Shown here piece by piece: positions 27,233 through 50,876 of a stretch of DNA of 64,000 nt. The stretch comes from Candidatus Woesearchaeota archaeon (GTDB lineage: Archaea > Nanobdellota > Nanobdellia > Woesearchaeales > GW2011-AR9): the NCBI GenBank assembly GCA_018302605.1, contig JAGVZN010000019.1, positions 29,803-93,802 on the forward strand. The letters run 5' to 3'. The translations under genes were made by a program, and so were the position numbers. Below the pieces are notes generated by a model. That model saw only the letters and a list, made by a program, of their open reading frames with translations. It had not been told where the DNA came from and made no database searches. Each line of letters starts with the position of its first letter. Within the stretch, counting starts at the first letter, position 1.

Positions 27233-27293
27233 ATGTATTTAGATTTAATAGGAAGCAATAGTCATAGAACCATTTATTAGAAATACAAAAAAC

Positions 27294-28415: not shown

Positions 28416-28420
28416 GAAAA

Positions 28421-29101
28421 ATGGAAGAAGAACAAAACAAAAACAGCACAAAAGATACCAAGAAGCACGATATTTTAGTGATAGATTATCATGTGGGGAA
28501 CCATCGTTCAGTCCTTAATGCCCTTTCTCTTCTGGGATATCACTACAAAGTTTCCAGCGAGAAAGAGGAGATCGCAAAAGCACCAGCATACATTCTGCCC
28601 GGGGTTGGAGCGTTTAGTGAGGCAATGACTAATCTTCAGAATCTGGGAATTATTGATACACTCAAAGAGCAAATTCTTAACCATAAAAAGCCTATACTGG
28701 GAATCTGTTTGGGGATGCAAGTATTGGCAGAAAGTTCAACAGAAAATGGTTTCCATAAAGGTCTCGGCATCATCAAAGGGAGTGTGATGAGGATCGATTC
28801 TCACAAAGATATTAAAATACCCCACGTAGGATGGAATAATCTATCCATCCATCAAAAAGACCCGCTATTCACAAGAACAGATGAGGAAGCACACTTTTAT
28901 TTTGATCACAGTTATCATATTGCCTGTGATCATTCCATTATTTCCGCGACGTGTACCCATGGAAGCGAGATCACCGCAGCAATCCAATCAGACAACATAT
29001 TTGGAGTGCAATTCCACCCAGAAAAAAGCCAAAAAAATGGATTGCTCTTACTGAGAGGCTTTTTTAATTACATCAAACAGAGGGAAAGTAAAAATGCTTA
29101 A
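28421..29101 (+). CDS. HisH-like class I glutamine amidotransferase (WbuY / AglY-like)
   Basis: ILVIDYHVGNHRSV ... LPGVGAFSEAM ... ILGICLGMQVLAE (GATase triad region). Confidence 0.8.
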   Translation: MEEEQNKNSTKDTKKHDILVIDYHVGNHRSVLNALSLLGYHYKVSSEKEEIAKAPAYILPGVGAFSEAMTNLQNLGIIDTLKEQILNHKKPILGICLGMQVLAESSTENGFHKGLGIIKGSVMRIDSHKDIKIPHVGWNNLSIHQKDPLFTRTDEEAHFYFDHSYHIACDHSIISATCTHGSEITAAIQSDNIFGVQFHPEKSQKNGLLLLRGFFNYIKQRESKNA

Positions 29102-29978
29102 ACATCGATTGGTTGCCTGCCTCACGCTTAAAGAAAGAATAATTGTGCAGAGTATTGGCTTCGAAAAATACCTGCCTATCGGAAGACCAGAGATTACTAT
29201 AGAATTTCTCAACAATTGGGGCATTGATGAGATTGTGGTACTAGACATAGATGCCACTCGAGAAAGCAGGCTTGTGGATATCGAACTCGTACAGAGAATT
29301 TCAAAGAAGTGTTTTGTCCCATTAACGGTTGGAGGAGGAATAACCACTGTTGAAGAAATGAAAGAGCTTATTCGCCAAGGTGCAGACAAGATTTGTATCA
29401 ATACCTCGGCAATCCAAAATCCTCCATTGATCAGAGAAGCATCACACGTATTAGGAAGTCAGTGTGTTGTCGTTTCTCTCGATGTCAAAAAGAATGGCCG
29501 TGGGGAATACGAAATATTTACTCACTCCGGAAAGAAAGCAACAGGGATAAATCCTCGAGATTTCGCCCAGAAAGCCGAAGCACTTGGGGCCGGAGAGATA
29601 TTTATCACTTCCATCACTCGAGATGGTTCGAAACAAGGATACGATCTTGAACTGATCAAAGAGATCTCTCGTGCGGTCTCCATTCCCGTTGTAGCCTGCG
29701 GGGGTGTAGGAAACCCATCTCATTTTGTCGAAGCAATCAGAGAAAGTACGGTCAGTGCCGTGGCCGCAGGAAATTATTTTCATTTTACGGAACACAGCCC
29801 GATGATTACAAAAGCATTTATCAGCAAATGCCCAGATGCAAAAATAAGATTTGACACTTATGCAGACTACCGCCACTTTTCGTTTATGAATGAGAAAATG
29901 ACCCATCGGATCGATAAGAAAGAAGACCAATATTTGAAAGATACCCGGTTCAAATATCATCCAAAGGAGGTCATATGA
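29094..29978 (+). CDS. HisF-like cyclase/synthase subunit (WbuZ / AglZ-like)
   Basis: DEIVVLDIDAT ... LTVGGGITTVEEM ... VVACGGVGNPSHF (HisF TIM-barrel phosphate-binding motifs). Confidence 0.8.
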   Translation: MLKHRLVACLTLKERIIVQSIGFEKYLPIGRPEITIEFLNNWGIDEIVVLDIDATRESRLVDIELVQRISKKCFVPLTVGGGITTVEEMKELIRQGADKICINTSAIQNPPLIREASHVLGSQCVVVSLDVKKNGRGEYEIFTHSGKKATGINPRDFAQKAEALGAGEIFITSITRDGSKQGYDLELIKEISRAVSIPVVACGGVGNPSHFVEAIRESTVSAVAAGNYFHFTEHSPMITKAFISKCPDAKIRFDTYADYRHFSFMNEKMTHRIDKKEDQYLKDTRFKYHPKEVI

Positions 29979-31255
29979 GATATTGTCAGCGGTGTCTTTA
30001 TCCCAAAAACCACCCTTTGGGCATCATCTTCGATGACAAAGGAGTCTGCAGTGGATGTAGAATTCATGAAGAGAAGGACGTTCTCGATTGGAAAGAACGA
30101 GAAGAGAAACTAAAGATTCTTCTAGAAAGATATAAAGATAAATCCGGAGAGAACTATGACTGTATCATTCCTGTCAGTGGAGCAAGAGATTCTTATTATA
30201 TTGTCCATCTTGTAAAAAATGTGTACGGCCTTAACCCTCTATTAGTAACGTACAATAAACAGTACAACACGGAAATCGGCATTAGAAATCTAGCGAATCT
30301 CAGAACGATATTTGATTGTGATATTCTCACTCTCACCGTCAACCCCGAAACGGTAAAGAAAATAACAAGAGCAACCTTGGTTAAGATGGGGAGCATATAT
30401 TGGCATTGCTTAGCGGGACAAACTGTTTTCCCTGTTCAAGTCGCCGTCCGCTTCAAGATCCCATTGATCATTTGGGGGGCTCATCAAGGATGCGATCAGG
30501 TGGGGATGTTTTCTCATATAGATGAAGTTGAGATGACGAGAAGGTACCGCAAAGAGCACGATTTATTAGGATTCGAAGCGGAAGATAATATCTCAGAACT
30601 GATGCAAGTGAGTGAAGAAGATCTAAAACCATTTGTCTATCCCCATGATAAAGAGATAGAGAAAGTAGGGGTTCGAGGAATTTATCTCAGTAATTATATC
30701 CGTTGGGACTCGAAAAAACAGCATGAAGAGATGATCCAACGGTATGAATATGAAACGATCGCACAAGAGAGGACTATTGATACGTATAATGACGTAGACT
30801 GTTTCCATTATTCTGATCTCCACGATTATATCAAATTTTTAAAATGGGGATATGGAAAAATAACCGACCATGCCACACGTGAGATACGTCTCAAAAGATT
30901 AACACGAAAAGAGGGGATCGAGTTAGTAAAGAGGTATCAAGACCAAAAACCGCAAAATCTTCAGCTATTTCTGAATTGGATCGGGATGACAGAGAAAGGT
31001 TTTTATTACCTCGTCAACCAACATCGAGATCAGAAAATTTGGAAAGAAAAAGAAGGAAATCAATGGGAACTAAGAGATTCTGTGACCAACCACTCCGATG
31101 ATGCTGGTGCCAAAGAAGTAGCCCTCGATAAAGTGGAGAATTGTATCTTCCAACTAACTCATCTCAAGAAAGATCAACCTGAAGAGAAGAGATATACTCT
31201 TATTGGGAGGGGATACATCGATAGGGGTGGGAGGGGAAGAGAGATTAAGAGGTAG
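29975..31255 (+). CDS. N-acetyl sugar amidotransferase, second paralog (WbuX/PseA-like)
   Basis: CQRCLYPKNHPLGIIFDDKGVCSGCR Zn-ribbon then PP-loop YDCIIPVSGARDSYYIV. Strong AAGGAGGT Shine-Dalgarno 7 nt upstream. Confidence 0.8.
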   Translation: MRYCQRCLYPKNHPLGIIFDDKGVCSGCRIHEEKDVLDWKEREEKLKILLERYKDKSGENYDCIIPVSGARDSYYIVHLVKNVYGLNPLLVTYNKQYNTEIGIRNLANLRTIFDCDILTLTVNPETVKKITRATLVKMGSIYWHCLAGQTVFPVQVAVRFKIPLIIWGAHQGCDQVGMFSHIDEVEMTRRYRKEHDLLGFEAEDNISELMQVSEEDLKPFVYPHDKEIEKVGVRGIYLSNYIRWDSKKQHEEMIQRYEYETIAQERTIDTYNDVDCFHYSDLHDYIKFLKWGYGKITDHATREIRLKRLTRKEGIELVKRYQDQKPQNLQLFLNWIGMTEKGFYYLVNQHRDQKIWKEKEGNQWELRDSVTNHSDDAGAKEVALDKVENCIFQLTHLKKDQPEEKRYTLIGRGYIDRGGRGREIKR

Positions 31256-31263
31256 TACCAAAA

Positions 31264-31836
31264 ATGGAAGAAATAATCAAAAACAAAAAAGAGATCATTA
31301 TCACCGGAAACAGGATCAAATTAGTCTCGTTTACTGACCAGCATCTTCAGGACCCGCATTATTTAATGTGGTTGCGAGATTATGATATTGTCAAGTTTAT
31401 TAATCGGAGAGAATATCTTCAAAAGATCAGTTTTGATGACGTCAAAGAATACATCAAAAACATCAGGGCAAGCAAAAGAGATATATTCTTCGCCATTGAA
31501 ATTCTAGAAAATAACCGTTTCATTGGAACATTCAAGATCGCTGACATTGATATTTACACTAAAAAGGCGGGATTGGGAGTCTTGATTGGAGACAAATCAC
31601 TCTGGGGAAGCGGTCTGGCTAGCGAAGCTATCAGCCTGGGGATTGACTTCTGTTTTAATATCATGGGATTACACAAGATCTGTGGTGGATGTATCGAGCC
31701 CAACACAGGGATGAAAAAAATATTTGAAAAACTCGGCTTTAGCAAAGAAGGACACTTCAAAGAACATGATCTTTTTGAAGGAAGATACATTGATCATATC
31801 CATTATGGCTTATTACGAAAAGATTACCACCATTAA
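31264..31836 (+). CDS. GNAT-family N-acetyltransferase (RimL/PseH-like)
   Basis: 190 aa; GNAT core LGVLIGDKSLWGSGLASEAISLGIDFCF. Confidence 0.65.
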   Translation: MEEIIKNKKEIIITGNRIKLVSFTDQHLQDPHYLMWLRDYDIVKFINRREYLQKISFDDVKEYIKNIRASKRDIFFAIEILENNRFIGTFKIADIDIYTKKAGLGVLIGDKSLWGSGLASEAISLGIDFCFNIMGLHKICGGCIEPNTGMKKIFEKLGFSKEGHFKEHDLFEGRYIDHIHYGLLRKDYHH

Positions 31837-31879: not shown

Positions 31880-32818
31880 TCATTTTTTGACTGCGTGAAT
31901 CTGAATAAACGTTGGTCGTAATACTTTCTTCCGAATCAGATGGGAATCTAAGAATTTAAGGAAACGAGCTAAAGCATACTTATCATCTCCTCGCAACCCG
32001 CCAATCAACTTATCAATAAATGCATCCGAATATTCGACTCTTTGAACCTGAAAGTATTTCTTTATCCCGTCAAGCATTCCTTCTTCAGACGAATTGATAT
32101 TATCCATCGGAGACTGTTCATGCTCTCCCTGGAAAGTATATTCATTGTAGATATCATTAACATAAGCATCCCAAGAAGCAGGATCGCCGATCTTATTGAA
32201 TTTCTCCTCAAATGATATCCACGTTGGTAAAACTGCTCTGAGAATCGCAGCAAACTCCGCCTGATCTTTCGTAAAATTATCTTCTATCGGTTCACAGACA
32301 ATGAGGTTGCCCTTTTTCTTCAACGCTCGATGAACTTTCTGGAGGACACGATCAATGTCCGCAAGATGATGGAGGGATCCAAAAAAAATGATAGAATCAT
32401 AGGTCTCTGTTCCGAGATCGAACGAAAGAATATCAGCACATTGATAATGCAATTTCAATTTTAAATGGTGATCAGTGAATTCCTGAGCAATCTTAATGCT
32501 TTGAGGAGACAAGTCTACACCGAGGACATCAAGACCATTTCTGGCAAGTTCCAGAGAAAGATAACCATAACCACAGCCGAGTTCAACAACTTTTCCCCCT
32601 CTCTCTCGAGCAATATTTAGCACAAAATCAACTTTTGGTAATAGATGAATCTTCACAAATTCAGGATCACGCCAGACATTATTATAAAACCAATCCACCT
32701 TCTTTAAACGTCGAAGATCAGGAATAAATCCATTCTTAATTCTCTCATCAACTTGACGGTCAAAAGCTTCAGCCTCTTTCTTCAATAGTTCATTGGGGTC
32801 GGTGTTATGAAGATTCAT
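31880..32818 (-). CDS. class I SAM-dependent methyltransferase
   Basis: VVELGCGYGYLSLELARNGLDVLGVDLS (motif I) ... LKKKGNLIV. Confidence 0.7.
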   Translation of the reverse strand: MNLHNTDPNELLKKEAEAFDRQVDERIKNGFIPDLRRLKKVDWFYNNVWRDPEFVKIHLLPKVDFVLNIARERGGKVVELGCGYGYLSLELARNGLDVLGVDLSPQSIKIAQEFTDHHLKLKLHYQCADILSFDLGTETYDSIIFFGSLHHLADIDRVLQKVHRALKKKGNLIVCEPIEDNFTKDQAEFAAILRAVLPTWISFEEKFNKIGDPASWDAYVNDIYNEYTFQGEHEQSPMDNINSSEEGMLDGIKKYFQVQRVEYSDAFIDKLIGGLRGDDKYALARFLKFLDSHLIRKKVLRPTFIQIHAVKK

Positions 32819-34062
32819 GAAGACTTTTTCCTCTCTGCCTCAACTTGAAGAATCGTTTCACGCAAAGCTTTTGCCTGTTCCCGAGCTTCTTCTAAGTCAA
32901 GATAATTAGTTTTAAAATGCATTAACTTTGGCTGTAATCGTTCGGCAACAGGACAAAGGCCCGGCTTATATTCCTGTTTTTTTCCTTTATACAAATCCGA
33001 ATCGATTGGGAAAAAAACACCGAGGAATTGTCGGTTTTGAAAGATTGGTTCATTATACGTTAACTGCCAAGCGCCATAGAAAAAATCACCACCCAGAGAA
33101 TAAAACTTCTTACGGAAGTCCTGCCAGGAACAACCCGCTTCTTTCTCTTCAAAACGACAAACAAATGTCCAGTAGGAATTAATATAACCTGGAGGTGCAT
33201 ATTGTGGTACGAGCCAGGAACAGTCCCCTACAGCTTCTCTAAAGAGAGCGCCAATCTTCATCCTCATTTCAACAAGTTCATCAATTCTCTCAGTCTGTTC
33301 CAAAGCGACTGCGCCCTGAAGATCAGACATGCGATAATTCCACCCCATGGAATCATGACGAAGAGATGTTGGATCACCTCGATCTTTCTTGGCGATCACA
33401 CCTCCACTCGAACCAGTTAGTGTATGATATCCAAAACAAGAAAATTTTCGTACTGCTGTCGCTAATTTTTCATCATTAGTGATAACAATTCCCCCATCAC
33501 CACACGTGATGTGTTTAGAAGCTTGTAGGCTAAAGCTTGCCATATGACCTAAAGTTCCAACCAACTTGCTTTTATAGGTACTCAAAAGACATTCAGCGCT
33601 ATCTTCGATGACAGCCAAATTGTGTTCGCGAGCGATCTTCATGATTTCATCCATATCCGCGGGCAAGCCGTAAAGATGTACTGGAATAATCGCTTTGGTG
33701 AGAGGGGTAATTCTCTCTTTAATGCTCTTTGGATCAATATTGAACGTCCGTGGATCAATATCCGCAAACACGGGGATTGCCCCTTGATGTAAGACACAAT
33801 ACGTAGTCGCCGCTGCCGTCAATGGGGGGACAATAACCTCATCGCCTGGCTTCACACCGGCTGCCGCCAGGCATGAATGCATTGTTGCGGTACCATTAGA
33901 ATGCGCAATGCCATAGGTAACACCCATTCTTTTGGCAAAGGCTTTCTCAAAACGATTAGTACAGCCTGGACCAGAAGAATTGCCAAACCCATATTCAACA
34001 ACTTCTTTGAGATACGTTAACGCCTTAGAACTGACTCTTCCCGGATGACCTTTTTTTTCCAT
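32815..34062 (-). CDS. DegT/DnrJ/EryC1/StrS-family PLP-dependent sugar aminotransferase
   Basis: 415 aa; ...IAHSNGTATMHSCLAAAGVKPGDEVIVPPLT...; 4-nt overlap with the downstream methyltransferase. Confidence 0.75.
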   Translation of the reverse strand: MEKKGHPGRVSSKALTYLKEVVEYGFGNSSGPGCTNRFEKAFAKRMGVTYGIAHSNGTATMHSCLAAAGVKPGDEVIVPPLTAAATTYCVLHQGAIPVFADIDPRTFNIDPKSIKERITPLTKAIIPVHLYGLPADMDEIMKIAREHNLAVIEDSAECLLSTYKSKLVGTLGHMASFSLQASKHITCGDGGIVITNDEKLATAVRKFSCFGYHTLTGSSGGVIAKKDRGDPTSLRHDSMGWNYRMSDLQGAVALEQTERIDELVEMRMKIGALFREAVGDCSWLVPQYAPPGYINSYWTFVCRFEEKEAGCSWQDFRKKFYSLGGDFFYGAWQLTYNEPIFQNRQFLGVFFPIDSDLYKGKKQEYKPGLCPVAERLQPKLMHFKTNYLDLEEAREQAKALRETILQVEAERKKSS

Positions 34063-34067
34063 TGCAA

Positions 34068-35471
34068 TTATTCCCCCATCTTATCAAGATATGTTTTGTA
34101 ATTAGAATACTTCGCATGAGTATAATCATCATAACGACCTTTCTCTAGAGAATCCATGATCTCTGCAATTCCTTCCGGAACACTCCATTTCGCAACAAAA
34201 CCTAATTCGTCTTTTATTTTTGAAAACGAAACGCGATAGTTCCTTTTATCGACATCCTGGTCGTCCACAGAAACCATAGCATCATGGACCTTTTGGGAGA
34301 TTGCTTCCGCAACATGAAAAATGGTTAAATTATTCTTTTCCGTACCAACATTAAAGATCTGGCCACGAACTTTTTCCAACGGAGATTCCAAAGCCAAAAC
34401 AATCGCTTGCGCCACATCTTCAACATGGACAAAAGGACGCCACTGATCACCGCCAAAAACAGTTATTTTCTTCTCTTTCAGAGCTTTCGCCGTCAATAAG
34501 TTTATAACGAGATCAAAGCGCATTCTCGGAGAAACACCGAAGACCGTAGATAGTCTAAAGATTGTGGGAGAGAAAAAGCCATCATCCATGCTCAAAATAG
34601 CTTGCTCGGCTTGAATCTTCATCCGCGCATAGAGAGATACAGGATTTAAGTTTGACTCTTCATCCAATAATTGGTCATTAATGCTTTCACCATAGACACT
34701 ACAAGAGGAAGTGTAAATAAATCGATTGATCTGGAAATACTTACAGACCTGAGCAACCATTTGGGTAGAAAGGAAATTAACCTGTTGTGTCTTTTGTGAA
34801 TCTACTGCACAGGCAGGATCGCCGACGATCTCCCCAAGTTGGACAACCGCATCGACGTCTTTCGTCGCAGTGATAATATTGTTAATATTTCCAATATCTC
34901 CTTGAATCAAAGTAAAATTCTCATTTTGAAGATGTGGCTCGATCGCCTCTCGTCCAAATAACAGGAGGTCTAAAACCACAACTTTATAGCCACGAGCGAG
35001 AAGCTTCCCCACAAGCACCGACCCGATATACCCTGCGCCGCCAACGACAAGAATTTTTCTTCCTCCCTTGGGGTGGGACGAGAAGAACGATGGAGACAAA
35101 AGAGATTGCTTCGACGCCTCGATACGGCTCCGCAGAACAATATTTGTTATTTTTCCCCCTTGATTAACGATGGGAAGATGGTTTATATCTTTATCGTGTA
35201 ATAATTTCATGACTTCCTGTTGAGTAAACCCCTCCTGCAAAGAGACGGCAGACGTATTCATGATCGCATCTATCGAGGTAGACAGTCCAAATCCTTTGAT
35301 AATTGCTCTTCGAATGTCCCCATCGGTAACTAAGCCGAGAAATTGCTGAGTAGAATCTACAACAACAGCAACACCATGGCCGTGGTGGTCTATCTTCTTC
35401 ATCACTTCACGTAAGGAATGATGGGGTCCTACAAAAAAAGCGTTAAGCTCATCTTTGCTTACTCCGAGCAT
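34068..35471 (-). CDS. CBS-pair domain fused to NAD-dependent nucleotide-sugar epimerase/dehydratase (extended SDR)
   Basis: N-terminal CBS pair (…GLVTDGDIRRAI…, …ITNIVLRSRI…); C-terminal KILVVGGAGYIGSVLVGKLLARGYKVVVLD Rossmann motif. Confidence 0.7.
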   Translation of the reverse strand: MLGVSKDELNAFFVGPHHSLREVMKKIDHHGHGVAVVVDSTQQFLGLVTDGDIRRAIIKGFGLSTSIDAIMNTSAVSLQEGFTQQEVMKLLHDKDINHLPIVNQGGKITNIVLRSRIEASKQSLLSPSFFSSHPKGGRKILVVGGAGYIGSVLVGKLLARGYKVVVLDLLLFGREAIEPHLQNENFTLIQGDIGNINNIITATKDVDAVVQLGEIVGDPACAVDSQKTQQVNFLSTQMVAQVCKYFQINRFIYTSSCSVYGESINDQLLDEESNLNPVSLYARMKIQAEQAILSMDDGFFSPTIFRLSTVFGVSPRMRFDLVINLLTAKALKEKKITVFGGDQWRPFVHVEDVAQAIVLALESPLEKVRGQIFNVGTEKNNLTIFHVAEAISQKVHDAMVSVDDQDVDKRNYRVSFSKIKDELGFVAKWSVPEGIAEIMDSLEKGRYDDYTHAKYSNYKTYLDKMGE

Positions 35472-37392
35472 TTAATAGTTCACCTCTAATTTTTCCGATT
35501 GCATCGCAGATAAAATCTATTTCCTCAGGAGTCATATGAGAATAAAGAGGCAGACTGATGATATTCTGGGAAATCGTTTCTGTCAACTGAAGAGGATGAC
35601 GCGCTTCTGTATCACGATACGCATCCTGTTGGTGAAGAGGCGGATAGAAATAATTCTTTGTCTGGATCCCTTTTTCCAGTAAGCGGGAGGAAAGTTCATC
35701 ACGTGGAACACCAAAGAGAGCAGGATCGATCAGAAGCGAGAAGTCTTTGTGAGTACTCTCTGCTCCTTCACCGATTTTCTGGAAAGAGATCCCGGGATAT
35801 GACCCGAGCTGCTTCTTATAATACGCTACTAGCTCATTTCGTCGACGGATGTTTTCTTTTAACATTGCCAACGAATGCAAACCAAGAAGCGCATGAAATT
35901 CACTCATCCGAGAACTAAGACCGGGATAATGACAATTATAATCTCCGGGGTCTCCATAAACCCGACCGATTCTGATCTTCCGCGCAAGGTCATCATCATT
36001 TGTCGTGACAATTCCCCCTTCACCAGTTACTAATAACTTCGTCGGAGAGCAGCTGAAAACTTCGGCATCACCAAAAGTGCTTACATTTCTTGAACCAACC
36101 CTAGAACCAAGGGCGTGAGCAGCATCAAAAATCAATTTGATATTGTGTTCTTTGGCAATCTTCTCTAGCTCTATGACATTTGCTGGACAACCAAAAAGAT
36201 GGACACCTAAAATCGCGGAAGTTTTATCGGTGATCGCTTCTCTTACTTTCTGGGGATCAATAGTATAAGTCTCTGGATCTACTTCAACAAAAACAGGTTT
36301 TAGTCCGTTCCATAAAATAGCATGTCCTGTCGCAGAAAAAGTAAAACTAGGGACGATTACCTCACCTTTCAAGCCCAATGCTTTCATCACTAACATCAAA
36401 CCGGAAGTGCAGGATGAAACTGCGATGACGTGCTTGACACCAAAGAATTCTTGAAGAGAGCGTTCTAACTTCTGAACATATTTATGATTAGTGATCAATC
36501 CTGAAGCAAAGATAGAACGTAATTCCGGCTCAATTTCTTCATAAGAAGGAAGAGTTGGCTTTGTGATGGGAATCATCTCTCTTGGTTGAGATAGCCTTTC
36601 TCTCATTTCTTTCTGGAAAACGAGCATTTGGATGGAACTATAGTTGCCCATGGCCGGGAGAAAACTGAAGAACTCAACAAATTTGTTATTATAAACAATT
36701 CCTTTAGATTTGTCCATCAAACTAGGGTATAAGACGCGTGCTCCGAAGTAATAAGTACTCAAGAAATGAGCATCTTGCCCTACATTTACTTCTTTAAACA
36801 AGGAAGCATTATGTTCTCGCAATTTCTTTTTATCAAAGAAATGATTGTGAAAAGGCTGAGGGATAGGCTCAAGACCAACTACATCTCTTGCTTTGTTTAA
36901 CTCGTCCCAACCATCAGTGAAAGATTCAACCATCAAGAAATAACCGTTGGGTTTCAGAACACGAGCGATCTCTTTCAACGCCTGTTGTTGACTCTCCCAA
37001 GAGTCAAGATTGATTAAGCATCTCTCTGTGATGACAAGTGAAAAAGAATTATCTGGAAAATCTAAATGAAGAGCATCGCCCCATTGAAAATGGGCTTTTT
37101 TCAGATTTCTCTTTTTAGCGATATCTAATAACTCGTTAGAGAAGTCAACCCCATAATAGGGGTTGAGGTAATCATTTCTTTCTAGCTCGGAAGCAAAAAA
37201 ACCGTTGCCGCAACCAATTTCAAGAAGGGGCGGTGTCGAACCGAGATTCTTGTTGACTAGATTCAATACTTTAAGTAGTTCTTGAATTTCTTTATCACGA
37301 ATGATAACATCCATCATCGTTGATTGCTTTGAACCTTGAAACAATTCCGCCTGTTTTTTGTAATGTTCTTTAACTTCGTCCGACCACACCAT
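35449..37392 (-). CDS. fusion: class I SAM methyltransferase (N-terminal) + DegT-family aminotransferase (C-terminal)
   Basis: LLEIGCGNGFFASELE motif I in the first ~250 aa; C-terminal half HVIAVSSCTSGLMLVMKAL ... FSCSPTKLL (PLP-lysine region of the DegT family). Confidence 0.7.
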   Translation of the reverse strand: MVWSDEVKEHYKKQAELFQGSKQSTMMDVIIRDKEIQELLKVLNLVNKNLGSTPPLLEIGCGNGFFASELERNDYLNPYYGVDFSNELLDIAKKRNLKKAHFQWGDALHLDFPDNSFSLVITERCLINLDSWESQQQALKEIARVLKPNGYFLMVESFTDGWDELNKARDVVGLEPIPQPFHNHFFDKKKLREHNASLFKEVNVGQDAHFLSTYYFGARVLYPSLMDKSKGIVYNNKFVEFFSFLPAMGNYSSIQMLVFQKEMRERLSQPREMIPITKPTLPSYEEIEPELRSIFASGLITNHKYVQKLERSLQEFFGVKHVIAVSSCTSGLMLVMKALGLKGEVIVPSFTFSATGHAILWNGLKPVFVEVDPETYTIDPQKVREAITDKTSAILGVHLFGCPANVIELEKIAKEHNIKLIFDAAHALGSRVGSRNVSTFGDAEVFSCSPTKLLVTGEGGIVTTNDDDLARKIRIGRVYGDPGDYNCHYPGLSSRMSEFHALLGLHSLAMLKENIRRRNELVAYYKKQLGSYPGISFQKIGEGAESTHKDFSLLIDPALFGVPRDELSSRLLEKGIQTKNYFYPPLHQQDAYRDTEARHPLQLTETISQNIISLPLYSHMTPEEIDFICDAIGKIRGELLNARSKQR

Positions 37393-37668: not shown

Positions 37669-39819
37669 ATGGTTTTGAGGGTTGTGGGAAAAAGTGATTT
37701 GGTGAGGTTATGCTCGTTTACACCAACAGATTTTGAACGATACGAATTGTATTTGCCGCTTCTCGAAGAGAACATGATCTCAGAGAGAATAGCTGCACTC
37801 CCCAATCATCTCAAAATTAGTTCTATTCATAATCCCACCTGGATGAAAGTGAATGGTCGGTTGCATCCCTTCGATCTGTCTGCAGAAGGTGTGGTCGGAG
37901 AAGCTTCTGATCAATCTTTACGTGGAACGATCAATCTCGCGCTGAAAGTGAGTGCACGAGTCATTGTAATCCACGGTGCGACATGGAATATCTATACTCA
38001 AACGAAAGAGGAAGCATTTGGCCGACTGGCATCGCGAGTACTACCACTCATTGAAAAATATCCACAAATCTCTTTTTGCTTTGAGACAGATACGTTGTGG
38101 CACAATCTTTACTTTCATCGACGAGCGTTATTGACCGATGAAAAAGACTTCGCATATTTAGACTTGTTACTGGGAGGAAGGCTGAAGATAACGGCTGACT
38201 TTGAACACCTGAACATATCTTACCACTTTTCGGAATTTATAACATCATTGGGTGGGGAAGATGATTTCCTTAAACGCTATACTGCTGATGGACAAAAAGC
38301 ATTTGAGTTAGATTGCCAGACATTTATTAAAAAACATTTTGAACAGTTGCAAGTTGGATTTAAGAATCATTTGGAATCATTCTTTAGCCGTTTTCAGAAT
38401 AAGATTGAACATATTCACATCAACGGTTCAGATTGTTGCAACTTTATCTTCGATCCTAAGACGACACTGCCTCTTGTTGGGGAGCATTTACCCGTAGGCT
38501 TCTCTCGCGAGAATGTTTCAGATAAGTTGGATTATTCCTTTATTGCGCGGCTGCTTCATTCTCTCCCAACGGAAAAACAGATTGATGTTGTTCTCGAGGT
38601 GTGGATGAAAGATGAGCGTGATTTCAGGACAATCTCTGTGGAATCAAAGATATTTTTAGAAGAAAAATTAAGTTCTCGAGGTGGAATTATGAATAATATT
38701 AATAATAACGTAAGTATTGAAGCTGCTGCAGAAAATATGAAAAGTGTTCTCATCGGAAAATTTGAAATCAAAAATTTTGGAAGGCCATTTATCATCGCTG
38801 AAATTGGTGCCAATCATAACGGGAATATTGACCTCGCAAAGAAAATGATTGATGCTGCAGTTGCCGCTGGCGCGGATTGTGCAAAATTTCAATCATGGAC
38901 CAAGAAAAGTATCTTCTCACGAGGAGTTTACGAAAACAACGCCGCTTTAGAGAAAGATATTGATACATACAGCTTTGAAGCAGAAAAGTATCGCGAGCTT
39001 AAGAGATATTGTGAAGAAAAGCACATTTTATTTGGGACAAGCGTGTTCTGTGAAAAAGAAGCAGACTTTTTTGTAGACGAGTTAAATGTCGATTTTGTCA
39101 AAATTGCTTCCATGGACGTAAATAACCTACCCTTTTTAGAATACCTTGCGCAGAAAGGAAAGCCATTAATTCTCTCGACAGGCCTTTCCACTCTTCCGGA
39201 AATTGCCGAAGCAGTAGCCACTATCACGAAACATAATCAGAAGTTGATTATCTTACACTGCCTCTCCGTCTATCCTGATGATCCCAATAAGAATTCTCCT
39301 CGCGCGGGAGTTGGTGGTGAAGCTGAAAGGACATTTTTGCAGGGAGCGGGGATTAACCTCCTAAATATCGACATGTTGCGGAACAACTTCAGTTACCCTA
39401 TTGGCTTCTCCGACAATACACCGGGCGTCTTTATGCCTCTAGCAGCAGTAGCACGCGGAGCATGTGTAGTCGAAAAACACTTCACTACGGATCACCATCT
39501 GGAAGGCTGGGATCACGGAATCTCTGCGGATCCAACCGAGATAAAATTAATTGTCGATGGTGCTCGTGCAATCAGTCAAGGGTTGGGTTCTTACCAACGT
39601 TCTCTCTCTGCAAAAGAGAGAAATATGATCCCCATTTTTCGACGTAGTATCGTCATAAAACAGCCGTTGCCTGCAGGACATATCCTGCGTAGGGAGGATA
39701 TTGAGTTCAAACGTCCGGGGACGGGAATTGAACCAAAACATCTATCGTTCATTATCGGCCGCCAACTAAAACGAGCCGTTAGTAGTGATGTTTTATTGAA
39801 CAAAGAGGATTTAGTCTAA
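37669..39819 (+). CDS. fusion: xylose-isomerase-like TIM-barrel domain (N-terminal ~330 aa) + N-acylneuraminate (nonulosonic acid) synthase NeuB/PseI/LegI with C-terminal SAF domain
   Basis: C-terminal FIIAEIGANHNGNIDLAKKMIDAAVAAGADCAKFQ (NeuB signature) and SAF-like IVIKQPLPAGHILRREDIEFKRPG. N-terminal metal-ligand-like VIVIHG, FCFETD, ITADFEH, HIHINGSD. Confidence 0.7.
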   Translation: MVLRVVGKSDLVRLCSFTPTDFERYELYLPLLEENMISERIAALPNHLKISSIHNPTWMKVNGRLHPFDLSAEGVVGEASDQSLRGTINLALKVSARVIVIHGATWNIYTQTKEEAFGRLASRVLPLIEKYPQISFCFETDTLWHNLYFHRRALLTDEKDFAYLDLLLGGRLKITADFEHLNISYHFSEFITSLGGEDDFLKRYTADGQKAFELDCQTFIKKHFEQLQVGFKNHLESFFSRFQNKIEHIHINGSDCCNFIFDPKTTLPLVGEHLPVGFSRENVSDKLDYSFIARLLHSLPTEKQIDVVLEVWMKDERDFRTISVESKIFLEEKLSSRGGIMNNINNNVSIEAAAENMKSVLIGKFEIKNFGRPFIIAEIGANHNGNIDLAKKMIDAAVAAGADCAKFQSWTKKSIFSRGVYENNAALEKDIDTYSFEAEKYRELKRYCEEKHILFGTSVFCEKEADFFVDELNVDFVKIASMDVNNLPFLEYLAQKGKPLILSTGLSTLPEIAEAVATITKHNQKLIILHCLSVYPDDPNKNSPRAGVGGEAERTFLQGAGINLLNIDMLRNNFSYPIGFSDNTPGVFMPLAAVARGACVVEKHFTTDHHLEGWDHGISADPTEIKLIVDGARAISQGLGSYQRSLSAKERNMIPIFRRSIVIKQPLPAGHILRREDIEFKRPGTGIEPKHLSFIIGRQLKRAVSSDVLLNKEDLV

Positions 39820-39843
39820 TTGGAACATTACTGAGGACTATAA

Positions 39844-41067
39844 ATGACTAAGATCAATTCCTCGATTAAATTATTGGCACTAAGTTTTTTCATTATTTTT
39901 TTCGGGTACAATGGTGTCCAGCAATATGTAACAGTATTCTTTGCTGAGAAAGGAATGCTTTCAGTTGGTTTTTATTCTCTGATTATTATTTACGTACTTC
40001 TCTCTTTGTGTAGCCCCCTTGCTGGGGCCTTCGTTAGTAAATATGGTCCCAAGAAAGCGATGGTACTCGCCTCGCTCTTTTATGCTCTCTTTATACTTTC
40101 TCTCTTACCAGGTTCGCTATCATTAGTCTATCTCGGTTCGGCGCTGTTAGGCATTGCTGCTGCGTTCTTATGGAATGGACAAAATGTCTATCTCATTAAA
40201 GCCAGTACAGAGAACAGTGCTGGTAAAAGCGCTGGCCTGTTTATGGTTGCTCTTTCATCAAGTGCAGCCGCCGGGATTTTGACGATTTGGTATCTGCAAC
40301 AATCTCTGTCGTTAGCCACTATCTTCCTTATCTTTAGCATTCTTCCTTTTGTAGGGTTCTTTCTCCTACTGACTCTACCTTCTGTCCCGACAGAACATGT
40401 CCCAAATAAATTCCAGTTGATGAAACGGTCGTTGACCAGCCCTACTGCGTTTCGTTTCTCTTTACTTTGGTTTGGATTGGCATTTGTCTCTGGTCTGGCG
40501 CTCGGCTTTCTTCCCATCGATATCAAGAATCTCTTTGGTATCCACCTAATTGGACCCCTCTCCACTCTATTCTATGTCATGCCGATTCTTTTTTCCTATC
40601 TCTTCGGTAAAGTTTCAGATAAGCTTGGAAGAAAGCCGATGATTATCCTTTCTTTTGTTCTCTGCGGAATAAGTTTAATTATTCTGTCATTGGCAACAAC
40701 ACTTTGGTTGATGATACTTGGCATTATTATTTTAACAACATATTACGCAGCCACGCGAACGATTACGTTCGTTTTAGTTGGTGATATTTCCAGCCCACAA
40801 AATCTTGGATCACTGACCTCCCAATTCTGGGCAGTTCAGAATGTGGGCACAGTTGCAGCTTTATTTACGGCGATAATAATCCCTGGAAAAAATGTTTATC
40901 TCGTTTCGCTTGGTTTTCTCGTTTTATCAGCGGTACTTTTATTTCCGATTCTCAACCATAGTCTTCCCGAGACCAGATCTATTATTGAAAAGGAGATGGG
41001 ACTAGTGATGGAGAATCAGAATTTAGAGATAAAAGAACAGAACTTAGCTGATATCAAGCAGAACTAA
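39844..41067 (+). CDS. MFS-type transporter
   Basis: 407 aa, about 12 hydrophobic segments; GPKKAMVLASLFYAL between TM2 and TM3. Confidence 0.65.
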   Translation: MTKINSSIKLLALSFFIIFFGYNGVQQYVTVFFAEKGMLSVGFYSLIIIYVLLSLCSPLAGAFVSKYGPKKAMVLASLFYALFILSLLPGSLSLVYLGSALLGIAAAFLWNGQNVYLIKASTENSAGKSAGLFMVALSSSAAAGILTIWYLQQSLSLATIFLIFSILPFVGFFLLLTLPSVPTEHVPNKFQLMKRSLTSPTAFRFSLLWFGLAFVSGLALGFLPIDIKNLFGIHLIGPLSTLFYVMPILFSYLFGKVSDKLGRKPMIILSFVLCGISLIILSLATTLWLMILGIIILTTYYAATRTITFVLVGDISSPQNLGSLTSQFWAVQNVGTVAALFTAIIIPGKNVYLVSLGFLVLSAVLLFPILNHSLPETRSIIEKEMGLVMENQNLEIKEQNLADIKQN

Positions 41068-41124
41068 ACTCAAAGAGAACTATTCCTCAAAACATTTATA
41101 AATCAAATTCCATCGAGAACTTTC

Positions 41125-41565
41125 ATGATTTACGACCGATTAGATTCTTCACTTCCTTATCACGGCCTAAATCCGCATTTTCCCGCAGCATTCTCCTTTT
41201 TACAAAGATCAGACTTAGATATGTTAACACCAGGAAAGTACGATGTTGAAAATGGGCTTGTCACTATCGTTGTTGATGGTGATAATCTTGGTGAAGAGAA
41301 AGCAGAATTAGAGAGCCACCAAGAACATATCGATATTCATTATACGATAACCGGCGTTGACCGCATCGGTTGGAAGCCTGTTTCAAGATCAACTGTAAGT
41401 AAACATTACAATCCTGCAAATGACACGACTTTTTATAATGACCATCCGCAAACAGGGGTAGATGTAGCTCCTGGTTATTTTGCAATTTTCTTCCCTCACG
41501 ATGCCCATGCTACAATGGCTGGCACAGGAAGAGTAAGAAAAATCGTGATGAAGGTTCTGCTTTAG
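41125..41565 (+). CDS. YhcH/YjgK/YiaL (DUF386) family protein (NanQ-like sialic acid anomerase / mutarotase fold)
   Basis: 146 aa; ...HQEHIDIHYTITG...FAIFFPHDAHA pattern typical of DUF386. Confidence 0.5.
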   Translation: MIYDRLDSSLPYHGLNPHFPAAFSFLQRSDLDMLTPGKYDVENGLVTIVVDGDNLGEEKAELESHQEHIDIHYTITGVDRIGWKPVSRSTVSKHYNPANDTTFYNDHPQTGVDVAPGYFAIFFPHDAHATMAGTGRVRKIVMKVLL

Positions 41566-41572
41566 GTGTTCT

Positions 41573-42658
41573 ATGGACTCAGATCAAGCCGCATCATTAC
41601 TGAAAAAGAGTGGATATGATCTTAATGTTATCACCTTAATCCCAGAAGGGAGAAGTCACGATGTTTTTGACGTATCTCTCTCCGATGGCCGTTCCGTTGT
41701 TGCACGTTTCGGAAAACATTCCCCAGAAGGCCAACCGCGCCGTGACTTCCATTATAACGGAGTTCTCTCTCTTGAAAGAGAGAATTATCTTTGTCACTTT
41801 GTCCGTGCTGCTGGTCTCCCTGCTCCTAAAGTGGAAAGCACCCATCTCCTCAGCGAACAGGAATTTGTGGTAGTCGAGAAATTACCAGGCAAACACTGGA
41901 AAACATTTCTCGAGGAAAAAGGATATTCTCAACAAGCGTATCTAGATTCCCTTGAGTTTTTAGGAGCCGATCTGGCACAAGCTCATCAAGTCACATTCGA
42001 TTATTTCGGAAATCTCATGGCCGGAGGCGTTATCGAGCCGGCAGGAGTCACTAATTTTGCGCTAAGACTGAGGTCTATTCTCGATCTAAAGATTGGACGG
42101 GAAGAGAAAACGAACGCTCTTTCACCTCAGGAGTTAATGGAAGTAAAACAATATTTTACTAGCCGATTAGATAATTTATATCCTCTTTTCGAACGATTAA
42201 AATCTACGCCGCGACTTATTCTAACAGATTTGCATCCCATGAATTTCCTTGTTGATGATGCAGGTAAGCCTTCGGGTTATTTTGACTTGGAATTTTGTCA
42301 GGCCGGCCATCCGGCTCTTGAAATGTATTACCTTGAAGTGCAGTTATTCAACTATTTTAATCGGAATACAGCGGCGTTAGCACGTGATGCTTTCTACAAA
42401 GGTTATCGAAAATCTGGTGGAGAATATGAACCTGACGATCCCATCAACAAAGAATTAGAAACTATCCTCGCTGCTGGTCAAACGCTTACTGCTGTAACGG
42501 CATATCACGGAGTAAGAGATGGGGTAAGAGATAGATGGAGTGCTCAATTTAAAGAGATTCTTTTTGATGTAATCACTTCCGGTTCGATGGATACGGTCGC
42601 TTATGCTGACGTCATTCGACAGAAAACACAGCAACCTTCACAACCAACATTACCATGA
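41573..42658 (+). CDS. aminoglycoside/choline-kinase-like phosphotransferase (APH fold)
   Basis: Brenner motif LILTDLHPMNFLVDD and downstream DLEF. Confidence 0.6.
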   Translation: MDSDQAASLLKKSGYDLNVITLIPEGRSHDVFDVSLSDGRSVVARFGKHSPEGQPRRDFHYNGVLSLERENYLCHFVRAAGLPAPKVESTHLLSEQEFVVVEKLPGKHWKTFLEEKGYSQQAYLDSLEFLGADLAQAHQVTFDYFGNLMAGGVIEPAGVTNFALRLRSILDLKIGREEKTNALSPQELMEVKQYFTSRLDNLYPLFERLKSTPRLILTDLHPMNFLVDDAGKPSGYFDLEFCQAGHPALEMYYLEVQLFNYFNRNTAALARDAFYKGYRKSGGEYEPDDPINKELETILAAGQTLTAVTAYHGVRDGVRDRWSAQFKEILFDVITSGSMDTVAYADVIRQKTQQPSQPTLP

Positions 42659-43632
42659 AAATTGCCATCATCGGCGCAGGAGCGCTTGGATCATTAGTCG
42701 GGGCATATCTCTCCACGCAACATCAGGTTCTCCTCTATGGAAGAAGAGAACACGTTGAAGCTGTCAACAAAGATGGTCTGCATACTTCCGGAATAAGGGG
42801 AGAGATGGTCTATGATCTCCCAGCAACAACCGATCTCCGCGGCCAGCACTTTCACTTAGGCATCGTGGGGGTAAAGAGTTATGATACTGAACGAGTACTC
42901 GCTGATCTAGAGAGACAGGAAGCATCATTTGATTATATTGCATCGATCCAAAATGGATTAAAAGACGATGTTCTTATCCAGAGGTTTGGAATTGAACGTG
43001 TTTTAGGTTGCGTCGTTGATGAAGCAGCGAAGATGGTTGCTCCGGGCCGTGTTTGCTACACAAATAATGGGTGCAGCTATTTTGGAACATTTACTTCCGA
43101 AAATGAGAGGGGTATAAAGACTGCTGTTGCTAAATCCCTCTCAGAAACACTGCAACATTCCGGGTTAACTGCAAATGTTGCTGAAAATGTTGATACGATC
43201 ACGTGGTATAAATTCATGGGTGCAAATACCGTTTGTGTTAGCGGCGCGCTTGATCTAAACGCTGCACAAAAATTCACAAACCCGTACGCACGGAGCCTTT
43301 TTGTACGTACTATTGATGAAATTCTTGCTGTTGCTAATGCCGAAGGTATCCCCCTCACACCACATCCGATGCTCAGTCAAGTATTCCTCGCCGAGGCAGC
43401 AGGGAGAAAAGAATTAATTGATACGTTAACAAGGAAACATGAACAATCTACAAGTGAGCCGCATGTACCCTCTCTTGTCCAAGACTTAAGAAAAAGAAAA
43501 GCAATAACTGAAGCAGATGACACAATGGGTATTTTGCTCAAACATGCTGCTACCCATGGTATCAGAATCCCAACGATAGAAACCTGTTATCAAATCATAA
43601 AAGCAAAAGAATTCAGAAATCACTCCAAGTGA
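42655..43632 (+). CDS. ketopantoate-reductase (ApbA/PanE)-family NAD(P)-dependent oxidoreductase
   Basis: MKIAIIGAGALGSLVGAYL N-terminal Rossmann; 325 aa; 4-nt overlap with the upstream kinase. Confidence 0.55.
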   Translation: MKIAIIGAGALGSLVGAYLSTQHQVLLYGRREHVEAVNKDGLHTSGIRGEMVYDLPATTDLRGQHFHLGIVGVKSYDTERVLADLERQEASFDYIASIQNGLKDDVLIQRFGIERVLGCVVDEAAKMVAPGRVCYTNNGCSYFGTFTSENERGIKTAVAKSLSETLQHSGLTANVAENVDTITWYKFMGANTVCVSGALDLNAAQKFTNPYARSLFVRTIDEILAVANAEGIPLTPHPMLSQVFLAEAAGRKELIDTLTRKHEQSTSEPHVPSLVQDLRKRKAITEADDTMGILLKHAATHGIRIPTIETCYQIIKAKEFRNHSK

Positions 43633-43689: not shown

Positions 43690-45255
43690 GTGATCCACAA
43701 CAAACGTGTCTTAGCGTACATCCCTGCCCGCAGTGGCAGCAAAAGTATCATTGATAAGAATATTGTTGATGTCTGCGGCAAGCCGTTGATTGCCTATACT
43801 ATCGAAGCTGCAAAAGCAAGCAAATATGTCGATGCTGTCATCGTCTCTACAGATTCTCTAAGATATGCCGAAATCGTCAAGAAACTCGGTGCAGAAGCGC
43901 CATTCCTCCGGCCAGCGGAATTGGCCTCCGATACAGCAGTGGAGATGGACTCCTGTCAACACATGATGAGTTGGGTTGAACAGAACTGGCCGGAAAAGTA
44001 TGATCTCGTTCTCAAGCTCGAACCGACATCCCCCCTCCGAACAGCTGATGATATTGATCAAGCGATCGAGACATTCGTAAAGAAAGATGCTAATACAGTG
44101 ATTACCGTTACGGAAGCATTCACCCATCCTTTCTGGATGAATACTTTAGACGATCAAAAATCAATGGATAACTTTATTGCAGAAGATGTTAAAAGAAAAA
44201 ACCGGCAACAGCTTCCCATCTATTACCAATTAGATGGATTAGTCCACGTCGCCAGCTGGGAATTCCTTAAACAACATAAAACCTGGTTCGCAACAGAAAA
44301 AAGCTATGCCTCGATTAGCCCGAATGCCCATGCTGTTGACATCGACGGGCCGACTCAATTAGAGTTAGTAAAAATCATTATCAGCCAACGAAATGAACAG
44401 AAGCATCCTGAACTCGCTCTGCCCAAAGGAGAAGAAAAAAAAGAGATGGCCGGAACAAAAGCAGTTCATTCCCTTTTCAATCTTACAGGAAAAGTCGTAA
44501 TTATCACCGGCGCCGCAGGATTGATCGGCATGCAATATGCAGAAATTCTCTCTGATGCCGGTGCCCACATTGTCATTGCTGATATCAAACAAGAGATCTG
44601 CGATGCCGCAGCAGAAAAGATCACGCAACGCAGTGGCATCAAAGCATTAGGCGTAGAAGTTGATATTTCACATGAAGAATCTGTCCAGAGAATGCTGGAC
44701 CGGATCAGCAAAGAGTTCGGAAGGGTTGATGTTTTGGTCAACAATGCTGTCGCCCGGCCACAATTCTATTTCAAGCCATTTGAAGAATATCCTGTCGATG
44801 ATTGGGAGATGGTCATGTCGGTAAACCTACGCGGCGTGTTTATCTGTTCTAAAATCATTGGAGACTACATGGTCAAGCAAGGAAAAGGGGTCATTGTCAA
44901 CATTGGGTCAACATACGGCATTGTGGGGAATGACCTTAGTATCTATGAAGGGCCAGAATCAAACGCCTTTCCTTCTGCAGTCTATGCAGCGAGTAAAGGA
45001 GGAGTCATCAATCTCACTCGCCATCTCGCAACATACTGGGCTCACAAAAGAATTAGAGTTAACTGTCTCAGTCCGGGGGGAGTAGAGAACAATCAGACCA
45101 AAGAATTCATCAAACGCTATAGTGCACGAACTCCGATGGGAAGGATGGCACGAAAAGACGAATACAAAGGCGCGTTATTATTTCTCTGTTCCGATGCTTC
45201 TTCTTACATGACCGGCGCAAATCTTGTTGTTGATGGCGGCTGGACCGCGTGGTAA
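43690..45255 (+). CDS. fusion: CMP-N-acylneuraminate cytidylyltransferase (NeuA/PseF/LegF-like) + short-chain dehydrogenase/reductase (SDR)
   Basis: N-terminal VLAYIPARSGSKSIIDKNI ... AVIVSTDS; C-terminal VVIITGAAGLIGMQYA ... NAV ... YAASKGG (SDR TGxxxGxG and YxxxK). GTG start per ORF track. Confidence 0.7.
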   Translation: MIHNKRVLAYIPARSGSKSIIDKNIVDVCGKPLIAYTIEAAKASKYVDAVIVSTDSLRYAEIVKKLGAEAPFLRPAELASDTAVEMDSCQHMMSWVEQNWPEKYDLVLKLEPTSPLRTADDIDQAIETFVKKDANTVITVTEAFTHPFWMNTLDDQKSMDNFIAEDVKRKNRQQLPIYYQLDGLVHVASWEFLKQHKTWFATEKSYASISPNAHAVDIDGPTQLELVKIIISQRNEQKHPELALPKGEEKKEMAGTKAVHSLFNLTGKVVIITGAAGLIGMQYAEILSDAGAHIVIADIKQEICDAAAEKITQRSGIKALGVEVDISHEESVQRMLDRISKEFGRVDVLVNNAVARPQFYFKPFEEYPVDDWEMVMSVNLRGVFICSKIIGDYMVKQGKGVIVNIGSTYGIVGNDLSIYEGPESNAFPSAVYAASKGGVINLTRHLATYWAHKRIRVNCLSPGGVENNQTKEFIKRYSARTPMGRMARKDEYKGALLFLCSDASSYMTGANLVVDGGWTAW

Positions 45256-47000: not shown

Positions 47001-47005
47001 TTTTA

Positions 47006-49089: not shown

Positions 49090-49129
49090 TGAGAAAATGG
49101 GTCAAAATTTGTTTATAAAGTTTAAGGAA

Positions 49130-50785: not shown

Positions 50786-50828
50786 GAAGAGAGGAAAAAC
50801 TGCCTTTTTATGCTTTATGGGCTTGAAA

Positions 50829-50858
50829 CCCTATTCGTACCACCCCTATTCGTACCAC
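50829..50858. repeat. 15-bp perfect tandem direct repeat x2 (ccctattcgtaccac) in intra-operon gap
   Basis: Read directly: ccctattcgtaccac at 50829-50843 and again at 50844-50858, between the GT2 gene and the epimerase/acetyltransferase gene. Confidence 0.6.
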
Positions 50859-50876
50859 TCTAACTTCAAACGATAG

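Follow-up and report, generated by a model that had tools for sequence, protein, structure and literature searches.

Bacteria and archaea both use nonulosonic acids to decorate their flagella and cell surfaces. To our knowledge their pathways are held to be well mapped, and the release of the sugar from its nucleotide has always been ascribed to the GT-B enzymes PseG, LegG and NeuC. In this paper we looked at a stretch of 64,000 nucleotides (the window) from Candidatus Woesearchaeota archaeon (GCA_018302605.1; contig JAGVZN010000019.1, positions 29,803-93,802 of the forward strand), whose genome assembly is 1.16 Mb in size and 90% complete. A large glycan island of the window contains a gene for a 716 amino acid protein, in which an N-terminal TIM barrel of the xylose-isomerase fold (residues 1-336) is followed by a linker, a NeuB-type synthase domain and a SAF domain. 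The conserved residues of the barrel point to a His-rich metal site of the endonuclease IV type, and we tentatively suggest that the barrel frees the sugar that the fused NeuB domain then uses.

The fusion gene

The fusion is encoded by one open reading frame (37669..39819, plus strand) that has no internal stop across its 716 amino acids, in agreement with the original prediction, which was made from the DNA alone and described one continuous gene. A TATA-like element, TTTATAA, lies about 30 nt 5' of the ATG, and this start is kept in 10 homologues. The 276-bp intergenic region 5' of the gene has no second copy within the window.

The same layout was looked for in other genomes, and it was found. 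Seven contigs, which come from several sources, have the identical protein on record. When residues 1-345 were used as the query of a word-indexed search, 11 proteins were found at 48-78% identity, all with the barrel-NeuB-SAF order; 10 of them are 704-731 amino acids long and many have a precomputed PF01261 (AP_endonuc_2) annotation. Two further proteins of this layout were found by searching with the C-terminal half, which brings the total to 13 clusters at 90% identity, and in the genomes of three more species from this archaeal family the fusion is present as an open frame of 733-739 amino acids. Since the layout recurs on the seven contigs, in the 13 clusters and in the three further genomes, the fusion is not an assembly artefact. 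It is also the sole NeuB of its genome, as found in a genome-wide search. The linker differs between homologues in both length and sequence. In the full-length AlphaFold2 (AF2) model the predicted TM-score (pTM) is 0.48 and no confident packing is seen between the domains; a complex prediction of the barrel with the NeuB domain scored 0.00, which gives no answer on contacts and is evidence neither way.

Fold and metal-site residues of the barrel

Neither Pfam nor NCBIfam has a match to residues 1-350, although hits up to E<=10 were admitted, and in the scan of its own genome PF01261 left the barrel unmatched. In the homologues P0069, P0070 and P0018, PF01261 reaches 34-44 bits. The AF2 model of residues 1-345, which was built on 40 family members, shows an eight-stranded TIM barrel with a predicted local distance difference test (pLDDT) of 94.7 and pTM of 0.92. 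Therefore, the TIM-barrel fold proposed in the original prediction stands in spite of the failed direct profile search, because homologous fusions carry PF01261 and the model has the fold.

Foldseek gives a probability of 1.00 for the likeness of this model to ketose 3-epimerases, L-rhamnose isomerase and endonuclease IV, and its list is headed by ketose 3-epimerases and by L-rhamnose and xylose isomerases. In an exhaustive structural scan (VIA) the first matches were MJ1311 (3wqo) with Z 24.9 and TM0416 with Z 24.3; endonuclease IV (Nfo) of E. coli and T. maritima reached Z 21.7-21.8. Altogether 50 solved members of the fold align over 230-274 residues of the barrel, with Z from 24.9 to 16.5.

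An exhaustive HMMER search of 1.84 billion proteins gave 54 representatives of the barrel family, most of them stand-alone proteins of 320-345 amino acids. Conservation was counted in 40 members, with identity down to 20%. Eleven residues are invariant in all 40 (K8, E26, H54, H102, E139, D177, H180, H250, G271, E272 and E310), and three are nearly so: D285 (39/40), D255 (35/40) and H273 (31/40). When the family profile was run against all PDB sequences, the only matches were MJ1311, with E 3.9e-5, and chains of endonuclease IV, with E 1.2e-4 or weaker. In these alignments H102 corresponds to the histidine of an HPG motif and E139 to the glutamate of an (L/I)EN motif; the MJ1311 alignment alone extends to D177-x-x-H180, which is paired with the DxxH motif of that protein.

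By hhalign, the barrel matches E. coli Nfo and one archaeal Nfo with 88-91% probability, and barrel residues H102, E139, D177 and H180 are paired with Nfo residues H109, E145, D179 and H182, respectively. Residues 181-241 of the barrel form a 60-residue helical insert. The hhalign pairing of H234 with Nfo H216 was rejected, since residue 234 is helical and not conserved and the alignment slips by one strand past the insert. The strand topology of the model places H54 (end of strand 3) at Nfo H69, H250 (end of strand 7) at H216, E272 and H273 (7-8 loop) at D229 and H231, and E310 (end of strand 8) at E261. The Nfo counterparts of these barrel residues bind three zinc ions (PMC11621827). Eight of these nine barrel residues are invariant in the 40 sequences, H273 being the exception. 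The Nfo equivalog model, TIGR00587, has no match in the genome at E<=1e-30.

These residues point to a His-rich site typical of phosphoesterases, which goes beyond the Glu-Asp-His-Glu set of the epimerases. By their likeness to the metal site of endonuclease IV and MJ1311, the invariant residues suggest that a phosphoester is hydrolysed or a nucleotide released, rather than a sugar isomerised.

The NeuB-SAF half

The C-terminal half was described in the original prediction as a canonical NeuB plus SAF. Both domains are indeed found well within the Pfam models: PF03102 (NeuB) scores 217.2 bits against a cut-off of 22.1, and PF08666 (SAF) scores 34.4 bits against 21. The half aligns end to end with bacterial NeuB, PseI, LegI and SpsE (1xuz, 8h2c, 1vli and 6ncs; E 1e-31 to 1e-40), its PDB relatives are 6ncs, 1vli, 8h2c and 1xuu, and the substrate-binding motifs are kept. 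Yet it departs from the canonical form in three ways. The first is that it stays below the equivalog cut-offs: TIGR03569 (N-acetylneuraminate synthase) ranks first with 285.5 bits against 399.65 and TIGR03586 (pseudaminate synthase) second with 210.1 bits against 340.25, and from these models the product sugar is not nameable by sequence. The second is a Gly-rich insertion of about 22 residues, which splits the PF03102 match in two and lies just N-terminal of Asn583.

The third difference is Asn583 itself, which turns the SDH motif into SDN. It stands where N. meningitidis NeuB has a metal-ligand histidine, which by our count is presumably His215, the partner of His236. One of the two histidines is thus present in the fusion, as H604 (the equivalent of H236), and the other is replaced. 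Asn is found at this position, together with the insertion, in six barrel-NeuB fusions and in one gammaproteobacterial NeuB (L064), and His is kept in 76 of 80 related species-level NeuB genes. A Cys-to-Asn switch separates metal-dependent from metal-independent KDO8P synthases. NeuB was described as having two His ligands and an absolute metal requirement, and KDO8P synthases that are metal-independent exist (PMC12531865). In the Asn583 form, judging by this substitution and by analogy with the KDO8P synthases, the metal dependence may be altered or absent.

Association of the barrel family with NeuB

Nine contexts are long enough to show what surrounds the barrel, and in each of them NeuB is either part of the same protein or encoded no more than about 7 kb away; a tenth contig (L001), which is only 2 kb long and uninformative, was left out. 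The usual companions of the pair are a 4-aminotransferase, an N-acyltransferase, an SDR and a cytidine monophosphate (CMP) transferase. In a Nitrospinota genome (L071) NeuB adjoins a stand-alone barrel that is 25% identical; in a genome scan with the full-length alignment, which returned almost only plain NeuB genes, this was the sole locus with a neighbouring barrel.

At two loci the barrel is fused to a PIG-L de-N-acetylase (L104:3324-5012 and L105:1035-2723; P0018). The order is barrel-PIG-L, formyltransferase, NeuB and CMP-transferase, facing a dehydratase and an aminotransferase-acetyltransferase, and this compact operon probably makes an N-formyl nonulosonate, as judged from its gene content. 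All Leg/Pse-type steps are encoded there save nucleotide release, and the barrel is the sole domain without an assigned step. L094 is similar; its dehydratase belongs to the dTDP-glucose 4,6-dehydratase equivalog (444 bits). SDRs of the Polysacc_synt_2/GDP_Man_Dehyd type, which we read as dehydratases, are found at L104, at L096 and at the P0006 locus. A 521 amino acid 'Epimerase_2' gene beside the L094 barrel was considered as a LegG and rejected: it matches neither NeuC nor WecB and resembles a BFO_1060-type glycosyltransferase.

L095:1-21023, a contig that is either bacterial or archaeal, holds four NeuB-family genes and several CMP-transferase domains, one of them fused to NeuB, and its barrel comes directly after a PglD-like acetyltransferase. 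A related locus, L084, contains an archaeal S-layer domain, which fits the Woesearchaeota/DPANN assignment of the genome, as do the taxon labels of the nearest protein cluster; a search of the assembly for SSU rRNA gave no match.

Distribution of the releasing enzymes

The original prediction had noted that no NeuC, PseG or LegG is evident near the gene, and this holds for the whole genome: PseG was not found there, and the NeuC model gives only a 75-bit cross-match to the sole Epimerase_2 gene, which is of the WecB type. Among 401 genomes of the phylum, NeuB is present in 92. NeuC/LegG is above its cut-off in 26, of which 23 also have NeuB, typically adjacent; a PseG-like gene adjoins NeuB in 8, and the barrel is found at high score in 6, namely this genome and five relatives, all six with NeuB. 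The NeuC, PseG-like and barrel sets show zero overlap. Direct searches of the five relatives gave NeuC at no more than 101 bits (cut-off 236) and PseG at no more than 21 bits. A recognisable releasing enzyme is present in about a third of the 92 NeuB-positive genomes. The lack of overlap agrees, if weakly, with a non-orthologous replacement.

Proposed function of the barrel

Based on these data, the likeliest of the roles considered for the barrel is that of a metal-dependent hydrolase, which would make an aldose available to NeuB by cleaving a nucleotide sugar or a sugar-1-phosphate. We hold this reading tentatively, with doubt slightly outweighing trust, and propose it because of the fold with its metal-type residues, the association of the barrel with NeuB only, and the absence of PseG, LegG and NeuC from the carrier genomes. 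In such a mechanism the fusion would join two enzymes in the pathway of a CMP-activated nonulosonic (sialic-acid-like) sugar of a DPANN (Woesearchaeota-type) archaeon. The barrel, with a His/Glu/Asp metal cluster of the endonuclease IV / MJ1311 type, would release the aldose from the nucleotide or the sugar-1-phosphate, a step for which other pathways use the GT-B enzymes, which are not related to the barrel. The synthase fused to the barrel would then receive this reactive sugar, and its NeuB-SAF part would condense phosphoenolpyruvate with the free, tailored hexose or hexosamine. The reaction could be a P-O hydrolysis or an elimination plus hydration, with or without C2 epimerisation; substrate and reaction are both inferred.

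Several points weigh against this reading. Four of the nine Nfo-ligand equivalences come from an alignment program and five from strand topology alone, and the Glu-Asp-His-Glu set of the ketose 3-epimerases is also present, as E139, D177, H250 and E310 (the same four residues belong to the Zn2 site of endonuclease IV). Most of the clusters hold a GT-B or Capsule_synth protein, which is in principle a possible hydrolase like PseG. As many as 55 of the 92 NeuB-positive genomes are without NeuC, PseG and barrel alike, and zero overlap between the three sets is expected by chance in about 7% of cases, related genomes not being independent samples. Finally, the sugar made from the window may be oxidised at C4 and retain its 6-OH, with no 6-deoxygenation, to judge from the SDR of the divergent operon described below.

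An alternative is an activity as sugar isomerase or C2 epimerase, for example from gluco to manno, by which the barrel would prepare the substrate of NeuB, with the nucleotide being taken off by a different enzyme. The substrate of Leg-type synthases has to be a manno sugar, and the fold shared with the ketose 3-epimerases and the L-rhamnose and xylose isomerases, together with the conserved Glu-Asp-His-Glu tetrad, would suit such an enzyme; the L094 pathway also starts apparently from dTDP-glucose, so that C2 would carry an OH and aldose-ketose chemistry would be possible there. However, the additional invariant residues H54, H102 and H180 correspond to zinc ligands of endonuclease IV and not to isomerase residues, and nucleotide release would be left without an enzyme in every cluster. 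MJ1311 is said, in work of Uechi et al. from 2014, to conserve all nine ligands and to show no epimerase activity. We consider this alternative unlikely. It was the chemistry of the original prediction, in which the fused domain would supply the substrate by isomerisation or epimerisation: the supply of the substrate is kept as the best reading and is probably right, but the isomerase chemistry is not supported and, by the pattern of invariant residues, is probably wrong.

The barrel might also be a phosphatase whose target is a phosphorylated substrate or product, for instance the 9-phosphate of a nonulosonate, as in the animal NANS/NANP and the Bacteroides Kdn-9-P routes. The metal site is of the phosphoesterase type, an APH-family kinase lies two genes downstream in the window and is present at L085 as well, and the local SDR resembles a C4-dehydrogenase, which would keep the 6-OH. 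Against this, several barrel clusters encode 4,6-dehydratases, and therefore their products would be 9-deoxy sugars that are unable to bear a 9-phosphate; the close relative L086 has the barrel without the kinase. This makes a phosphatase role decidedly improbable. More improbable still is an action on the nonulosonate after condensation (as dehydratase, lyase or hydratase), or some other or no role, even though some dehydratases, glucal hydratases and 1,2-lyases have this fold (8ro4, 8tcd and 3cny) and the clusters have extra late-acting enzymes (the SDR fused to a CMP-transferase, a second DegT, GNAT and WbuX), since the barrel is also fused to the PIG-L de-N-acetylase beside a formyltransferase, which we read as enzymes of the nucleotide-hexosamine stage, and ten polar barrel residues are strictly invariant.

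Returning to the release of the aldose by the barrel, a wider and more doubtful proposal can be made from the sequences. There may be a third class of nucleotide-sugar-releasing enzyme outside GT-B, a multinuclear-metal phosphoesterase of the endonuclease IV / MJ1311 lineage, which takes the place of PseG, LegG or NeuC in the nonulosonate pathways of archaea and of some bacteria, and which hands the aldose directly to a fused synthase; here it is joined to an Asn583 NeuB whose need for the usual divalent metal is perhaps changed or lost. A barrel that is dedicated to NeuB, fused to it in either order or fused to a de-N-acetylase, is a concrete candidate for the missing release step and, if the proposal is true, a first function would be given to that branch of the endonuclease IV fold which resembles MJ1311. 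Even as an isomerase or a phosphatase, the barrel would mark a route that has yet to be studied.

Comparison with known systems

In Serratia marcescens, the NeuB of the KL1 and KL2 loci, which is required for a Kdn-containing capsule, has an extra COG1082 domain (Anderson et al. 2022, PMC9000132). A search of long NeuB-containing proteins shows that such NeuB-SAF-barrel proteins, of about 630 amino acids, form a large and widespread group in which PF01261 scores 77 bits. Hence NeuB fused to a TIM barrel is an architecture already known, and the view of the original prediction that the arrangement had not been described holds only in part. Both types combine, in one polypeptide, a NeuB/SAF synthase and a barrel of the xylose-isomerase fold, and the two barrels have DxxH, GE(H/G)L and (L/P)E(V/I)W motifs in common. 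The order here is barrel-NeuB-SAF, whereas there it is NeuB-SAF-barrel. The barrels show no BLAST similarity, and their hhalign probability of 88% is no closer than that to endonuclease IV; the Serratia-type barrel has Asn and Gln at the positions of H102 and E139. The Serratia-type fusion is usually found in two-gene neuA-neuB modules and not in Leg/Pse-like tailoring clusters.

The fusion of the window is probably, on sequence grounds, a second and independent joining of NeuB to a barrel of the same broad lineage, and two independent fusions of this kind make a stronger case for functional coupling. For the form with the barrel at the N-terminus, no mention was found in the literature searched. 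What is new is the opposite domain order, the distinct barrel family, the His-to-Asn change at the NeuB metal ligand and the intragenic cassette swap described below.

MJ1311, a 'D-tagatose 3-epimerase-like protein' of Methanocaldococcus jannaschii, is both the best structural match and the best PDB sequence-profile match of the barrel (root-mean-square deviation 2.6 over 251 residues, 18% identity), with the His, Glu and Asp-x-x-His positions in common. Unlike the barrel, MJ1311 stands alone, is not known to be linked to NeuB, and lacks the 60-residue helical insert. It was listed as a predicted EndoIV homologue (PMC2770678). Endonuclease IV, a trinuclear-zinc apurinic/apyrimidinic endonuclease and 3'-phosphoesterase, shares the fold (Z 21.7), and its metal ligands have proposed counterparts in the barrel, but the context of the barrel is sugar biosynthesis and not DNA repair. 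To PseG, LegG and NeuC the likeness is one of inferred function, with the same proposed step and pathway position; these are GT-B proteins (TIGR03590, TIGR03568), and the TIM barrel is unrelated to them in fold and has no sequence similarity.

Gene neighbourhood and cassette exchange

The positions of the fusion, its domains and the neighbouring genes are given in Table 1.

Table 1. Features of the fusion gene and of the surrounding glycan island, in positions of the window.
Feature	Position	Strand	Basis or remark
Whole fusion gene, 716 amino acids (P0001)	37669..39819	+	Single ATG-to-stop open reading frame
N-terminal xylose-isomerase-fold TIM barrel, residues 1-336	37669..38676	+	AF2 model, fold matches
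Asn-rich linker, residues 337-356, low confidence	38677..38736	+	pLDDT <50 in full-length model
NeuB-type (alpha-carboxyketose synthase) domain, residues ~357-650	38737..39618	+	PF03102, TIGR03569
Gly-rich insertion, residues ~537-562, specific to the 'SDN' subtype	39277..39354	+	Alignments; pLDDT <50
AAT codon, Asn583	39415..39417	+	Counted on 1xuu alignment
SAF domain, residues 658-716	39640..39816	+	PF08666
Four-gene block: MFS transporter, DUF386/YhcH-like, APH-family kinase, ApbA/PanE-like reductase	39844..43632	+	Absent from close relative L086
CMP-sugar-type cytidylyltransferase (CTP_transf_3) fused to SDR	43690..45255	+	
Divergent operon: methyltransferase-DegT aminotransferase, CBS-SDR, LegC-like DegT, methyltransferase	31880..37392	-	
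Capsule_synth-type transferase, two WbuX amidotransferases with HisH/HisF-like partners, GNAT	25790..31836	+	
WecB-type non-hydrolysing UDP-GlcNAc 2-epimerase fused to hexapeptide acetyltransferase	49130..50785	-	Sole Epimerase_2 gene of the genome

The locus of the close relative L086 is syntenic, and its neighbouring proteins are mostly 80-95% identical (range 69-95%). The fusion itself behaves differently in its two halves: when window 38600-43632 is compared with L086:10001-13838, identity is about 78% in the barrel and falls to about 50% in the NeuB-SAF half. L086 has a His-type NeuB and is without the MFS, DUF386, APH and ApbA genes; L085 is of the Asn type and has APH and DUF386 again downstream (L085:12257-13773). 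The pattern suggests that a cassette was replaced, with one of the breakpoints at the junction between the domains; the exchange would have changed the synthase type and the accessory genes together and left the barrel in place. The Asn variant of NeuB and such an intragenic swap bear on the diversity of surface sugars in tiny symbiotic archaea. DUF386/YhcH-like and APH-family kinase genes recur beside Asn-type synthases, in the four-gene block of the window, at L085 and at L104:109-546, and the ApbA/PanE-like reductase recurs at L094.

A CTP_transf_3 domain and an SDR accompany the barrel/NeuB pair at five other loci, fused to each other at L002/L003, in the P0006 context and at L086, and as separate genes at L094 and L096. 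Beside the fused form there are usually a second DegT and a GNAT, and such a gene content suggests that oxidation, transamination and acylation occur after CMP activation.

The divergent operon presumably encodes tailoring steps of the nucleotide sugar. One of its products (34068-35471, minus strand) is an SDR fused to a CBS-pair domain; its closest solved structure is 6vo6, which we take to be the GDP-heptose C4-dehydrogenase Cj1427 and not a 4,6-dehydratase. Its motif, SSCSVYGE, lacks the Asp-Glu dyad that is typical of 4,6-dehydratases.

Further along the island lies a set of genes for a 2,3-diacetamido sugar (45327-55217, minus strand), with a GFO-type UDP-GlcNAc 3-dehydrogenase, a DegT and the WecB-acetyltransferase fusion, flanked by PMT-like transferases and a fusion of LPG_synthase_TM with a methyltransferase. 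The WecB-type product scores 292 bits with WecB against 75 bits with NeuC (cut-off 236), and by sequence it belongs to a separate pathway of the UDP-ManNAc3NAc type. Within the island there is also a second, ordinary PF01261 barrel (51 bits), next to two zinc alcohol dehydrogenases (10467-13485, minus strand), and a third barrel gene is found on contig 31 of the genome.

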